From assembly GCA_038087875.1 (NCBI GenBank), contig CM075988.1, positions 7,070,001 to 7,134,000 on the forward strand: 64,000 bases of DNA, read 5' to 3'. A program made the position numbers and the translations under genes. Positions within the stretch are counted from its first letter, which is position 1. Each line of letters starts with the position of its first letter. Under the pieces are notes generated by a model. That model worked only from the letters and a program-made list of their open reading frames with translations. It was not told where the DNA came from and did not search any database. Below, one piece after another: positions 6,209-11,475 of this stretch. The DNA is from Malacoraja senta. Taxonomy: Eukaryota.

Positions 6209-6849
6209 TTTAATTTCTTTTATTATACCATCTATAGAGAGTGAACCTGCAAGTTGTGTTGCTGCTGCAAGTAAGAATTTAATTGTTCCAGATTGGTACA
6301 TATGACAATAAAACGCTCTTGACCATCTGGTCCCTTGATCCATGCATTCATGCTCATTCTATCTTTGTGCTAAATCCACAAAGAATTCCGATAGATTAGT
6401 CAAATGTAGTTTTCCCATTCATAAATCTGTATAGACGTTGCTCAATGGTATTGTTAACTTCTACGTTTTTGATATCACATCTTTCATTATAAATGCCAGT
6501 ACTTTTCCATTGTGGAGCTGATGTGGACCTGAGGATGTATGCGTAAGTTTGCCACTGCTACACATGCCTTCTGTCAAATCCTTCAGACTTACACCTTTGA
6601 CCAACTTAGACTGGGCCCAAATCTTTAGTTTATTTAAAAAGTCTTACTTTTTTTTATCACTTTTAGCAGCATACTGCATCTAAAAGCATTTTTTTCCATT
6701 GACACGCTTGCTCGTGACCTATTCACTGAACTCAGGACATCTGCATTGAGACAGGACATTTAGTTTGTTGGATCTCTGCCAGTGTATATGCTCTATTTAC
6801 GAGTCATTTTGAATTAGAGAATTGTTAAGTTGGGGGAAGGGTGGGACGG

Positions 6850-7961
6850 TGGGGATAGAGAACTGGCTGGCAAACAGGAAGCAAAGAGTAGGAGTAAACG
6901 GGTCCTTTTCACAATGGCAGGCAGTGACTAGTGGGGTACCGCAAGGCTCAGTGCTGGGACCCCAGCTATTTACAATATATATTAATGACCTGGATGAGGG
7001 AATTGAAGGCAATATCTCCAAGTTTGCGGATGACACTAAGCTGGGGGGCAGTGTTAGCTGTGAGGAGGATGCTAGGAGACTGCAAGGTGACTTGGATAGG
7101 CTGGGTGAGTGGGCAAATGTTTGGCAGATGCAGTATAATGTGGATAAATGTGAGGTTATCCATTTTGGTGGCAAAAACAGGAAAGCAGACTATTATCTAA
7201 ATGGTGGCCGACTAGGAAAAGGGGAGATGCAGCGAGACCTGGGTGTCATGGTACACCAGTCATTGAAAGTAGGCATGCAGGTGCAGCAGGCAGTGAAGAA
7301 AGCGAATGGTATGTTAGCTTTCATAGCAAAAGGATTTGAGTATAGGAGCAGGGATGTTCTACTGCAGTTGTACAGGGTCTTGGTGAGACCACACCTGGAG
7401 TATTGCGTACAGTTTTGGTCTCCAAATCTGAGGAAGGACATTATTGCCATAGAGGGAGTGCAGAGAAGGTTCACCAGACTGATTCCTGGGATGTCAGGAC
7501 TGTCTTATGAAGAAAAACTGGATAGACTTGGTTTATACTCTCTAGAATTTAGGAGATTGAGAGGGGATCTTATAGAAACTTACAAAATTCTTAAGGCGTT
7601 GGACAGGCTAGATGCAGGAAGATTGCTCCCGATGTTGGGGAAGTCCAGGACAAGGGGTCACAGCTTAAGGATAAGGGGGAAATCCTTTAAAACCGAGATG
7701 AGAAGAACTTTTTTCACACAGAGAGTGGTGAATCTCTGGAACTCTCTGCCACAGAGGGTAGTCAAGGCCAGTTCATTGGCTATATTTAAGAGGGAGTTAG
7801 ATGTGGCCCTTGTGGCTAAAGGGATCAGAGGGTATGGAGAGAAGGCAGGTACGGGATACTGAGTTGGATGATCAGCCATGATCATATTGAATGGCGGTGC
7901 AGGCTCGAAGGGCCGAATGGCCTACTCCTGCACCTAATTTCTATGTTTCTATGTTTCTATG
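6850..7961 (+). mobile_element. Young 5'-truncated CR1 LINE with open RT C-terminal half
   Basis: Uninterrupted frame with SGVPQGSVLGP, KFADDTK, RPHLEYCVQFW; 3' tail (TTTCTATG)n. Confidence 0.95.
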
Positions 7962-8799
7962 ATTGTTTCAAAAAGACAGCTTTAACAATGGATGGCACGG
8001 TGGTGCAGCGGTAGAGTTACTGTCTTACAGCACTTGCAGCGCCGGAGACCTGGGTTCGATCCCAACTATGGGTGCTGTCTGTAAAGAGTTTGTACGTTCT
8101 CCCCGTGACCTGCGTGGGTTTTCTCCCACACTCCAAAGACGTACACGTCTGTAGGTTAATTGGCTTGATGTATGTGTAAATTGACCTTAGTGTGTGTAGG
8201 ATCCTGTTAATGTCTCTGATCGGTGCGGACTCAGTGGGCCAAAGGGCCTGTTTCCACGCTGTATCTATCTCTAAACTCAACTAAATAAGTATTTTGAATC
8301 TGGGTTTGAGGGAAGGATTTGAAGGAAGACTCGTCCTGTATGTGCTTGGTGGTGGGACGGCAGCTCGGAGGCTTGAGGGTCCTGATATCAGCCACAGGGA
8401 GGGCAGCACAGAACAGGGAATGTTTGCAGAGACTATGATCTGAGTGATTTTTATAAACTTTATGGAATTTATCTGCTCTTGCTGCTTTGGAACTAGAAAA
8501 CGAAGCTGTGCAAGGTATGGAAAATACCATAATCACAATTATATCTAATATTTGTTTTGTTTTTTTAATTGAATATCATAAAGAAAGCATTTGCGCCACA
8601 AAATGATCAGTGGTTTGCTCTTGTTATGAAATGGAAAGACCAAAGCAAAAAACTGCAGTTGCTGCAAATATGAAACTAAAAACAGAAATGCTGGAATTAT
8701 TCACGGGTCTGGTGGTTTCTATGGAGAGAGATTGGGAAATAATTGTTTCGATCAATGTGCCTGAATCAGAACTGGGGAATGGTTAGAAAATGTTTTAAG

Positions 8800-9135
8800 A
8801 TATAAAATGCAAGGCTGTTAATGCTTATTAATTTGTAGCTGTTGAATTGGGTGTGGAGTGCTAAAGGCAATGATGTGGCTGGTTGAAAGATGAGGTGAAG
8901 TTCCATGAGCTTGTGTTAAACTTGCTGGTACAGTGCAGGAGACCAAAGTCAGAAGCCACAGACGTTTGGGTAACTGAAGCAACAGGCAATGAAATTTTTT
9001 GATCACTCGTGCAGACTGAATGGAGATGTTCTGTAAAGTGGGCACCCAATCTGTGTTTGTTTCTCAAAGTGGAGGAGATCATTTCGTGAACACATGAGAT
9101 AGGAAGAGATGCAATTAAATTGCTGCTTCACTTGA
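8800..9135 (-). mobile_element. Degenerate Penelope-like GIY-YIG fragment
   Basis: Minus-strand translation KHRLGAHFTEHLHSV...LPVA resembles the ORF at 29716. Confidence 0.6.
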
Positions 9136-9780
9136 ATGGAGTGTGTGGTTACCTGAATGAGGAAAGGGAACAAGTGAAAGATCAGGCCTCTCCCGTAGCT
9201 GTGTGGGAAGCTGTGATGTGCACACTTGCTTTATTGTTTTTTGTAAGAAAATAATTCAAATATTAACATAATATGTGTTTTAAACATTCTGTCTCCAGTA
9301 CCATTTTTCTAGATATCTAACTCCCCTTTGAACTACCGTCGGGTATTCCATCTCGATGATACTCAATACTCAATGATACTTTATATTCCCATGTACCTAG
9401 CTAGGTACAGTGAGATTCTTTGTTTGCATACAATCCAGTAAAATCATACTATAGATAAGTTCAAAAGTGCAATGATTACCGTGTAATAATAGATTTCACT
9501 GAGGCAGTACACAAAGAGTCGCCACGTTTCTGGCACTAACAATGTTTCAAAGTTCTAAAGAGTACAGTCTTATCTTGGGCTTAAAGGTGCGTTGTCCTGG
9601 CAGCACCGATCCTCTCCGTCCACCGCCATCTTGAAATCGGCCTTTGTCCAGTGTCTGTCGACGACTCCCTCCACTCCCTCACTGGTTCCCAGTTTTCGGG
9701 GTCGAGCAGGAGATGAGCCTTGGAAGACTCCAGGTGGGGTGCTGGTTCTGTGGTGGGCCAGCCAGGCTTGCTGTTGGGGT

Positions 9781-9921
9781 CTTTTTCTTCTTGCGTATGG
9801 CGTGCACAGCCTAGAGTTGTAGGACAACTTGTTCTATTTGATCTTATTTGATCGTGCATGCCAGGTTGATTGCATTCGTTGAAACCGGGCGGACCAGGTG
9901 AAGGTTGCAATCTCCCACCCT
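9781..9921 (-). mobile_element. Short non-coding retroelement: 5' HDV-like ribozyme fold, 3' stem-loop, (AAG)n-like tail
   Basis: Ends ...gcacgccatacgcAAGAAGAAAAAG on the minus strand and appears to interrupt an unrelated repeat; 5' end described in the next feature. Confidence 0.7.
9868..9921 (-). ncRNA. Minimal HDV/CPEB3-like self-cleaving ribozyme fold, partly decayed copy
   Basis: RNA AGGGUGG-GA-GAUUGCA-ACC-UUCACCU-GGU-CCGCCCG-GU-UUCAA-CGAA-UGCAAUC. P1 has 6/7 pairs, P2 7/7, P3 3/3; L3 is 6/7 identical to CPEB3 UUCACGU; J4/2 is CGAA. Confidence 0.72.
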
Positions 9922-11475
9922 ACCAGGAGCTTCTGCCGCCAAACAGCTTGCCAGGAGCTTCTCTTAAAAACATTTACAGTGAATGTTGTGGAGCTGTAGA
10001 AATTAATTGTGTTGTATATTTTGTGGAGTGTTGCTACCTTGGGAGTATATGTGGGTGTGGTTAGAAGGTCATTGATTGCACCTTCTATAAGACTGTGGAT
10101 TCGGCTCCTTTGGAAAATTAGGGCATCTTGAGATATTGCCCAGGTGGAATTGAGATAATGCAGATCTGTGTCAGTGCAGAAGCGGATAAATGAGGGTACT
10201 ACCAAAGTTTTGGATAGGAAGTCATGACATCTTTGTGGGAGGCCAGGATCTATTTGGAGTGGTGATTGGGTAGAAATAATAAGAATTGAATGAGAAGGTG
10301 CCACCTCCTCTCTCCCTGCCCCTCTCTCACACCAAGGTTCCAGAGTTGTACTTTTCCAGCATTGAGGAACATTCATTGTGTTGGACAATGAGCCAAGTCT
10401 TAAGACAGATGGGCAATGTGTCTGAACTTATGTTGGCATTGGGAACCATGCACAGCTATATTTGAAATCTCCTGGTCTATTGCATCTTGAGTACATGCCT
10501 GTGGTGTAGTAGAAATAGCAGGGTTGGTCATTGGGCCTATCCAGTGGGAAAAACTCTTCTGTTGTGCTTCCCGATCAAACAATAACAGCCTCAAAATCCC
10601 ATTTGGATTTTAATTTTAATAATTAAAAATATGATTACAAGCAACTCTTTATGTACTGATGTAGCAAGATGTCTGTGTACATTGGATGCAGCATGGTGGC
10701 ACAGTGGTAGAGTTGCTGTTTTACAGTGCCAGAGACCTGGGTTCAACTACAGGTGCTGTCTGTATGGAGTTTGTACGTTCTCCCCATGACCACGTGGGTT
10801 TTCTCCGAGATCTTCGGTTTCCTCCCACACTCCAAAGACGTACTGGTTTGTAGATTAATTGGCTTGGTATAAATGTAAATTGTCCCTAGTATGTGTAGGA
10901 TAGTGTTAATGTGCGGAGATCACTGGTCGGTGCGGACTCGGTGGGCAGAAGGGCCTGTTTCTGCGCTGTATCTCTAAACTAAACTAAACTAATTTGAGTG
11001 ATGCTGGCCCTTTAATTCCTCATGGTCCATGTCGAGGCCCATTTGTACACTCAAGTGACAAAGAATGTTTCAGTGACGTTGGTTGAGGTATAAATTTTGG
11101 CCAGGATCCTGGGAGAGCAAATAGAGAACTCCTTCAATCTGACACAGTACGTGAGCTTGAAATAATGTATTGAGTGGGATGGTGAATTTGCACCATTCTA
11201 ACTCGAGTGAGAGCTCTATTACTGAGCCGAAGCTCTCTGAATGTTATCTAAATATTTGAAGGTCTAATTTTAATCTTCAGTTGAACTTCTTTCCAGTTAA
11301 GTCTTTGGTTTAAATTTCTCATTCTCTTAAACAAATCCCAGTGCATAATTGACCCACTAAATATCTTTTTTGCATTCCTGATTTCCATCAATGATCTGAG
11401 CTGTCTAACCCTACACTCTGGAATTCCTCAATAAACCACTTTGCCAGTTCAGCTCTTTAGAAGATGACTTCTCCC

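Follow-up and report, generated by a model that had tools for sequence, protein, structure and literature searches.

The stretch analysed here, hereafter the window, comprises 64,000 nucleotides (nt) of Malacoraja senta (assembly GCA_038087875.1, contig CM075988.1, positions 7,070,001 to 7,134,000), and its minus strand carries at positions 9781 to 9921 a decayed copy of a short repeat family, which we call F1. A sequence-only reading of the window had described this copy as a promoterless mini-retroelement headed by a minimal ribozyme of the hepatitis delta virus (HDV)/CPEB3 kind, similar to short interspersed nuclear elements (SINEs) and copied by a partner long interspersed nuclear element (LINE). 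We followed the element through the window's own genome (1.94 Gb), where we also found a second short family, F2, and a LINE with a ribozyme of the same kind at its 5' end. Read from 9921 to 9868, the minus strand of the window contains all elements of the HDV-like nested double pseudoknot in order, and the proposed parse was confirmed element by element, including the putative catalytic C at 9878. The parts of the element are as follows (helices are denoted P, joining segments J and loops L, and the sampled copies are described in the next section).

9781..9921, minus: decayed copy of F1, a non-autonomous retroposon family of ~141 nt; homology ends at 9920 and ~9780 in 29/29 other loci
9915..9921, minus: P1 5' strand, AGGGTGG (GGGGTGG in typical copies); 9921 is element position 1
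Between the P1 and P2 5' strands, minus: J1/2, GA
9906..9912, minus: P2 5' strand, GATTGCA; its partner is 9868-9874
9903..9905, minus: P3 5' strand, ACC (ACC/GGT in F1 versus GCG/CGC in F2 and the LINE)
9896..9902, minus: L3 loop, TTCACCT here, TTCACGT in 23/27 sampled copies
C22 (in L3) paired with G37 (in J1/4): P1.1
9893..9895, minus: P3 3' strand, GGT
9886..9892, minus: P1 3' strand, CCGCCCG here, CCGCCCT in typical copies, CCACCCT in an older subfamily
9884..9885, minus: J1/4, GT, whose G is the P1.1 partner; GT in 27/27 sampled copies
9879..9883, minus: 5-nt linker TTCAA instead of P4, where the LINE has a 7-bp P4 helix
9875..9878, minus: J4/2, CGAA, in which 9878 is the putative catalytic C; C-N-A-A in 25/27 sampled copies
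9868..9874, minus: P2 3' strand, TGCAATC
9854..9863, minus: 5' arm of the closing stem (panhandle), TGGCATGCAC, from the fold of the intact copy L005:1554-1632
9816..9828, minus: inner hairpin, GTTGT-CCT-ACAAC
9798..9807, minus: 3' arm of the closing stem, GTGCACGCCA
9781..9797, minus: 3' spacer TACGC, then an (AAG)n-type tail, AAGAAGAAAAAG

In the window copy the closing stem TGGCATGCAC / GTGCACGCCA comprises 10 bp with a single A-C mismatch. The length of the tail differs from copy to copy and a target-site duplication comes next; for the window copy itself, a clean target-site duplication was not recognisable. Compared with the intact copy L005:1500-1640, the window copy differs at 7 of 141 positions, three of which are key positions of the ribozyme, with A instead of G at position 1, C instead of G at 25 and G instead of T at 36, in agreement with the deviations originally noted at the cleavage-site pair and at the G of L3. 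The G1·U wobble is absent from this copy (A1 and G36), and because of the changes at positions 1, 25 and 36 the strict HDV-like descriptor found no match within the window. The predicted cleavage site lies 5' of G1, at window position 9921 on the minus strand; without G1, U36 and G25, the window copy is most likely inactive. Just 5' of the element (window 9922-9961, minus strand), the two copies of an 11-nt direct repeat, GAAGCTCCTGG, are spaced 18 nt apart.

Copies and boundaries of the F1 family

A search of the genome with the 141-nt sequence returned 2040 first-look candidates, 40 of which were scored and matched at 95-100% identity (40/40), and the 21-mer at the 3' end of F1 had 3182 exact matches, compared to 0 for a reversed control, which rules out the possibility that the sequence is single-copy. 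The start of 37 of the 40 scored matches was query base 2 (window 9920), and similarity to window 8400-10600 stopped at 9920 (at most 9926) and at 9777-9785 in 29/29 other loci. Target-site duplications of 8-14 bp abut the first G and the (AAG)n tail, as seen, with lengths of about 8-12 bp, for example at L005, L008, L010, L012, L017 and L024. The match starts, the duplications abutting G1 and the unrelated flanks thus place the 5' boundary of the element at position 1 of P1, where it had been anticipated.

To describe the variation of F1 we took the first 30 matches of the 3' 21-mer by chromosome position, a sample with no bias to full length, among which 27 copies reach the 5' end, two are 5'-truncated and one is internally deleted. 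G1 is present in 24 of these 27 full 5' ends, L3 reads TTCACGT in 23, and J4/2 keeps C-N-A-A in 25 (CGAA in 16, CTAA in five and CAAA in four), with all helices and core bases intact in 12; the sampled copies are 86-99% identical to L005. Most F1 copies start with GGGGTGG, have CCGCCCT as the 3' strand of P1 and carry TTCACGT as L3, and therefore restore both the G1·U wobble and the G of L3, i.e., UUCACGU in the RNA, as the sequence-only reading had predicted.

Contigs assembled from four public RNA runs (organisms A, B, D and E) cover the F1 element only, at very high depth. Loose contig ends were found at G1 in 48, 113, 214 and 248 contigs of runs A, B, D and E, respectively, and also at the tail, with a flank agreement at the G1 ends of ~0.35 in the four runs, which corresponds to unrelated flanks; contig ends break at repeat borders anyway, and these counts have no bearing on RNA 5' ends or cleavage either way. 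Within the head, variants at a share of at least 10% occurred in these contigs only at positions 32, 42 and 45, of which position 32 is G or A, both pairing with U5, position 42 lies in the linker, and position 45 is the N of C-N-A-A. At L077, L078, L080, L081 and L082 (~position 1500), the 31 nt between the P2 arms GATTGCA...TGCAATC are inverted; since these five copies differ at subfamily-diagnostic positions, each probably arose independently, by inversion across the inverted repeat of 7 bp.

A second short family and a candidate partner LINE

F2 was found by scanning the fetched loci for other (AAG)n tails, and its first copy, in L027, measures 176 nt and is bounded by a target-site duplication of its own (the family measures ~175 nt). 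The genome search for F2 gave 1708 first-look candidates, and the 40 that were scored showed 97-100% identity, with base 1 as the start of 35; the 3' motif of F2 had 1075 exact matches compared to 0 in the control. Among the first 20 F2 copies by position, 16 reach the 5' end, one starts at base 6 and three are truncated. The typical F2 head reads GGGGTC / AA / GGAAAGA / GCG / TTCACGT / CGC / GGCCCT / GT / TTCCA / CCAA / TCTTTCC. Relative to F1, the letters of P2 and P3 are wholly replaced with complementarity kept, and the architecture is identical; J4/2 is CCAA in F2 and CGAA in the LINE.

Neither short family has the head of a classical SINE, that is, one derived from transfer RNA (tRNA), 7SL or 5S RNA with an RNA polymerase III (Pol III) promoter. 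ARAGORN detected 0 tRNA genes in L005 (F1), L086 (F2) and L090 (LINE), and Rfam gave no tRNA, 7SL or 5S match for F1 or F2 at E ≤ 10, as expected from the earlier claim that Pol III boxes are missing. F1 does show the other traits of SINEs: its copies are numerous, small and without coding capacity, some are truncated at the 5' end, target-site duplications flank them, and their tail corresponds to that of the LINE. In length and abundance F1 thus resembles a SINE, but it lacks a Pol III-type head.

The LINE was recovered with a pattern consisting of the shared core without F1 or F2 neighbours, which had 201 matches compared to 23 in the control; among the first 100 of the 201 matches listed, six belonged to a third ribozyme type with a 7-bp P4. 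Loci L087 and L089 constitute one LINE copy of ~3.14 kb, in which a ribozyme, a 29-nt 5' untranslated region (UTR), one open reading frame (ORF), an (AAG)4 tail and a 12-bp target-site duplication follow in this order. The ORF encodes 940 amino acids, and past one in-frame stop 88 more codons are open through the tail into the flank in this copy; in other copies, a small indel apart, a TAG lies ~23 nt before the tail. Pfam searches of the ORF identified Exo_endo_phos (E = 1.7e-9), Exo_endo_phos_2 (E = 2.7e-9) and RVT_1 (E = 1.9e-32), and no promoter of the LINE's own was evident.

All six LINE 5' ends that were inspected begin at the ribozyme with unrelated DNA upstream, five of them with GGGGATC and the L087 copy without the first two G. 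An (AAG)n tail was present in 5/5 copies with a recovered 3' end (of the six copies), and target-site duplications of 10-12 bp were found in 4/5 of them. Among the 3' stretches fetched at the expected distance for the five copies other than L087, 4/5 contained the tail, and three of these four carry duplications of 10-11 bp. The first 450 nt of the LINE gave 22 candidates, all of which were scored, including 13 long matches, mostly 98-100% identical; eight of these start at the ribozyme, one starts six bases inside it and one nine bases upstream of it, and three are truncated. Protein relatives with 50-65% identity came from sea urchin, lancelet, insect, sea star and anole records, which bear no clade names, and many of the corresponding contigs measure ~3.0-3.4 kb. 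Elements of the RTE clade are ~3.2 kb long, lack an ORF1 and combine a single ORF for an apurinic/apyrimidinic (AP) endonuclease and a reverse transcriptase (RT) with very short UTRs and a tail of simple repeats. The candidate partner, a young LINE, has this architecture in its size, single endonuclease/RT ORF, short UTRs and simple-repeat tail, and on that basis is classified as RTE-like.

Other searches for a LINE, each starting from a part of the short elements, yielded candidates that were rejected. The 3' 21-mer of F1 with a non-F1 neighbour had four matches, three being short 5'-truncated F1 ends and one a full-length, internally deleted copy, and the 3' half of the ribozyme with a non-F1 neighbour had one match, L035, whose downstream sequence contains an unrelated repeat, is otherwise single-copy and lacks an RT-like ORF. 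A broader version of this hunt returned seven matches (two copies with indels and five inverted-core copies), the 3' end of F2 returned 45, all of them indel-bearing or truncated F2 with no shared upstream sequence, and the core motif without the 3' strand of P1 returned 26 compared to 5 in the control, comprising only mutated F1 copies and random matches.

Two side observations concern the LINE ribozyme. At G000:C2:72572015-72572109 (L088), C3833:2705091-2705186 and C6:38257057-38257151, a LINE-type ribozyme and ~30 nt of 5' UTR (95 nt in total) are followed by non-LINE sequence; these loci may represent a third non-autonomous family or disrupted LINE copies. At G000:C8:937338-937814, several tandem 30-nt matches to the start of the LINE ribozyme adjoin an 86%-identical LINE 5' end.

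Downstream of the ribozyme, the 3' domain of F1 (L005:1554-1632) folded with a z-score of -3.65 (0/200 shuffles as good) and that of F2 with a z-score of -2.58 (2/200 shuffles as good). The closing stem of both families begins 4-5 nt after the 3' strand of P2 and finishes 5-7 nt before the tail. In the LINE no local 3' hairpin was detected (z -0.48); its 29-nt 5' UTR has an exact 9-nt complement of the sequence ending 7 nt before the tail, which was reached by 1/5000 shuffles, and the resulting 5'/3' duplex of -15.7 kcal/mol was reached by 2/2000 shuffles. A panhandle layout is therefore common to the predicted folds of F1, F2 and the LINE, with arms of unrelated sequence. The sequence-only reading had proposed a LINE-like 3' stem-loop, of which the stem, the hairpin and the tail are indeed present, but the structure is better read as a closing panhandle. 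A conserved 5'/3' panhandle may put the ribozyme-made 5' end beside the tail from which reverse transcription is primed, which suggests how the LINE, F1 and F2 could be recognised or copied full-length.

Ribozyme fold in F1, F2 and the LINE

The C-N-A-A sequence at the start of J4/2 is a defining motif of HDV-like ribozymes. It was found in F1, F2 and the LINE together with the characteristic order of elements, P1.1 and, in typical copies, the G1·U pair. Intact copies of all three (L005 for F1, L086 for F2 and L090 for the LINE) match the strict descriptor exactly at G1, and 0 matches were obtained in 40 shuffled windows (5.1 Mb, both strands), so that the descriptor check recommended for the original parse turned out positive.

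We then evaluated the pairing of P1, P2, P3 and P1.1 in an alignment, A1, of six hand-picked intact heads (three F1, one F2 and two LINE). Pairing holds in 99.1% of its 106 cells, 10 of 18 pairs have both partners changed, and among F1, F2 and the LINE covariation is seen in 5 of the 7 pairs of P2; the covariation score of 0.652 (0.208 for shuffles) was reached by 0/500 shuffles, a signal that is qualitative but clear, since only three lineages contribute and the copies were picked as intact. When the partners were slid by 1-3 columns, 34-48% of cells were paired and at most 2 compensatory pairs appeared. The P1.1 pair C22-G37 is invariant in 6/6 rows, and G1·U is present in 5/5 rows with letters at that pair. 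The minimum-free-energy folds of the heads alone, a method that cannot represent pseudoknots, were unremarkable (z +0.6, +0.6 and -1.1).

On Rfam's mammalian CPEB3 model RF00622 (gathering score 35), the LINE ribozymes scored 63.8, 59.7 and 57.1 bits (E 1e-16 to 1.6e-14), and RF00622 was the only Rfam family at E ≤ 1 for them. F2 scored 31.1 bits on the same model (E 9e-7) as its sole Rfam match, and its head matches the LINE ribozyme along 36 nt with 83% identity (E 2.8e-5). For intact F1, CPEB3 ranked first with 17.5 bits and HDV-F-prausnitzii second with 14.4 bits among 4227 Rfam families, so the proposed Infernal comparison returned CPEB3- and HDV-type models as the top matches of intact copies. 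No other ribozyme family in Rfam matched F1, F2 or the LINE at the E cut-offs used.

Proposed mobilisation, alternatives and related systems

The high copy number, the sharp start at G1, the target-site duplications and the presence of a LINE with the same kind of ribozyme support the view of F1 as a non-autonomous SINE-like element. Judging from genomic sequence, F1 is probably a promoterless non-autonomous retroposon of the non-LTR type (one that lacks long terminal repeats), processed by its ribozyme and copied by the RTE-like LINE. We infer that a source copy would be transcribed within a longer host or read-through transcript, and that its first 54 nt would fold into a minimal P4-less double-pseudoknot ribozyme of the HDV/CPEB3 type, which would cut directly 5' of G1, so that the RNA template begins exactly at G1. 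The closing stem would then bring the ribozyme end beside the 3' spacer and the (AAG)n tail, and the endonuclease/RT of the RTE-like LINE, which itself starts with a complete CPEB3-type ribozyme, ends in the same tail and has a predicted equivalent 5'/3' pairing, would reverse-transcribe the RNA from its tail in a target-primed manner. The product would be a full-length insertion flanked by 8-14 bp duplications.

Several observations weigh against this interpretation. Neither F1 nor F2, both of which have P4-less heads, reaches the gathering score of RF00622, a search of Rfam with the window copy itself returned neither HDV nor CPEB3 at E ≤ 10, and the covariation has the small base described above. 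The older F1 subfamily has a shorter closing stem (L071, z -2.28), and the panhandle shared with the LINE is hypothetical, as the LINE arms were sought post hoc, after those of F1 and F2 had been seen. The bodies and 3' ends of F1 and F2 showed no alignment to the LINE beyond the ribozyme, the tail and a weak similarity over the last ~8 nt, and the pattern hunts found no LINE with exact F1 or F2 ends in the genome; the autonomous LINE that was recovered has the same kind of 5' ribozyme and the same (AAG)n tail but not the exact F1 ends. Furthermore, the LINE copies seen are 98-100% identical compared to 86-99% for the sampled F1 copies relative to L005, which makes most F1 copies older than this LINE subfamily, so that an older driver must be assumed for them.

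One other explanation is that the P4-less heads of F1 and F2 are dead relics of the LINE ribozyme and that the G1 end arises otherwise, e.g., from an internal promoter starting at G1. The scores of F1 and F2 below the Rfam gathering threshold are compatible with such relics, as is the 77-nt sequence of L1Tc/NARTc, which is described in PMC3383444 as both a promoter and a ribozyme (Pr77). We nevertheless consider relics unlikely: P1, P2 and P3 stay paired despite complete sequence replacement among F1, F2 and the LINE, which is expected only if the RNA fold was selected in the short elements too, the head variants occupy only structurally tolerated positions, and no tRNA-, 7SL- or 5S-like promoter head was detected in F1 or F2; moreover, natural P4-less HDV-like ribozymes exist according to PMC10879173. 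It is still more improbable that F1 was mobilised by a different LINE, such as the abundant CR1-like family, and that the RTE-like LINE merely carries the same ribozyme type. Such a driver would account for the failure of F1 and F2 bodies and 3' ends to align to the RTE-like LINE, and CR1-like 3' ends with octamer tails do lie directly upstream of 5'-truncated F1 or F2 at L033, L081, L056 and C5360, but the CR1-like tail is an octamer repeat instead of (AAG)n, and F1, F2 and the RTE-like LINE have the tail, ribozyme class, panhandle layout and duplication length in common. As for a chance parse of an ordinary repeat, it is favoured only by the window copy taken alone, which fails the strict descriptor and has no Rfam match; set against the 0 descriptor matches in 5.1 Mb of shuffled sequence and the matches at G1 in three independent families, the covariation across F1, F2 and the LINE, and the 57-64 bits of the LINE ribozyme on RF00622, it is effectively refuted.

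Ribozyme-processed non-LTR elements and non-autonomous derivatives of them are known, and F1, F2 and the LINE are a variant of that design. R2, RTE, baggins and L1Tc elements are established carriers of HDV-like ribozymes at their 5' ends; PMC6765202 reports those of RTE and baggins (Ruminski et al. 2011) and adds that some non-autonomous SINEs use such ribozymes as well. The LINE found here (~3.1 kb) resembles RTE in its single endonuclease/RT ORF, very short UTRs, simple-repeat tail and HDV-like 5' end; its ribozyme is of the CPEB3 sequence type, and its likeness to RTE is one of architecture. R2 SIDEs and R2/R1 hybrid SIDEs of Drosophila are described as short non-autonomous elements with a 5' HDV-like ribozyme and a LINE-RT 3' end (Eickbush & Eickbush 2012, PMC3414825), and the R2 SIDE ribozyme frees the 5' end from a co-transcript, as is predicted for the cleavage of F1 and F2. 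By the same account, R2 SIDEs are rare, specific to ribosomal DNA and derived from their parent by internal deletion, whereas F1 and F2 are dispersed in thousands of copies, with a P4-less ribozyme and bodies that cannot be aligned to the LINE found. In Trypanosoma cruzi, the LINE L1Tc and its non-autonomous partner NARTc carry the HDV-like ribozyme L1TcRz in their first nucleotides (PMC3185411, PMC3383444) and thus, like F1 and the LINE, have a 5' HDV-like ribozyme in common; as presented in these sources, however, this pair belongs to the trypanosomatid ingi clade, its 77 nt also act as a promoter, and the ends of NARTc match L1Tc sequence. P4-less HDV-like ribozymes (drz-Mtgn and theta ribozymes) are reported in PMC10879173 from metagenomes and gut phages, next to tRNAs; they share with F1 and F2 a double-pseudoknot core without P4, whereas the version in F1 and F2 heads a eukaryotic retroposon.

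The LINE ribozyme has the same P3-L3-P3', J1/4 and J4/2 letters as the mammalian CPEB3 ribozyme in the cmscan alignment to RF00622, and F1 and F2 keep the CPEB3-type L3, J1/4 and C-N-A-A; lacking P4, both remain sub-threshold on this model, and only the LINE ribozyme passes 35 bits. The CPEB3 ribozyme, which is treated as mammalian in PMC10919898 and PMC8256844, is a single conserved copy in an intron of mammalian CPEB3, in contrast to the multi-copy ribozymes here, which form the 5' ends of interspersed repeats. Because of the LINE scores of 57-64 bits and the shared letters, we raise as a tentative idea, more doubtful than not, that the mammalian CPEB3 ribozyme goes back, by exaptation, to the 5' end of a retrotransposon belonging to the RTE-like lineage described here. 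The occurrence of a CPEB3-type ribozyme on an autonomous LINE, outside the mammalian CPEB3 gene, makes the origin of CPEB3/HDV-type ribozymes testable by comparative genomics. No CPEB3-type ribozyme on a LINE was described in the literature searched (the full hit lists of Rfam lay outside the search), nor was a comparable short family from cartilaginous fish or from vertebrates, which Repbase or Dfam, likewise outside the search, may already catalogue.

If the predicted cleavage takes place, the P4-less heads of F1 and F2, at 52-54 nt, would rank with the smallest HDV-type ribozymes that occur naturally in a eukaryote, and the data suggest that a minimal ribozyme of this size can sustain a retroposon at thousands of copies without a Pol III-type head. 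The genome thereby provides a natural test set, with three divergent versions of one fold, one with P4 and two without, and since the predicted cut site is where every full-length insertion starts, function should be readable from the copies in the genome.

Other repeats were encountered in and around the loci studied. Window 6813-7960 (plus strand) holds a CR1-like LINE fragment with a 349-amino-acid frame that includes the C-terminal part of an RT, a 3' UTR and a TCTATGTT-type repeat tail, and its 3' end was found again in several of the fetched loci. At L033 (~1500, minus strand), L081 (minus strand, ~2385), L056/L106 and G000:C5360:98406-98470, a CR1-like 3' end is joined directly to a 5'-truncated F1 or F2 that ends in (AAG)n, with no duplication of the CR1 tail afterwards; these junctions could reflect template switching during reverse transcription or a target preference. 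Directly after the CR1-like tail, window ~7985-8250 (plus strand) contains a tRNA-like B-box motif, GGTTCGATCCC, and looks like a different, tRNA-derived SINE. Finally, the first ~400 nt of the L027 minus strand consist of a tandem ~26-nt unit, ATCCAGATA.CTCCAGAGGTCCCAAT, unrelated to F1 and F2.

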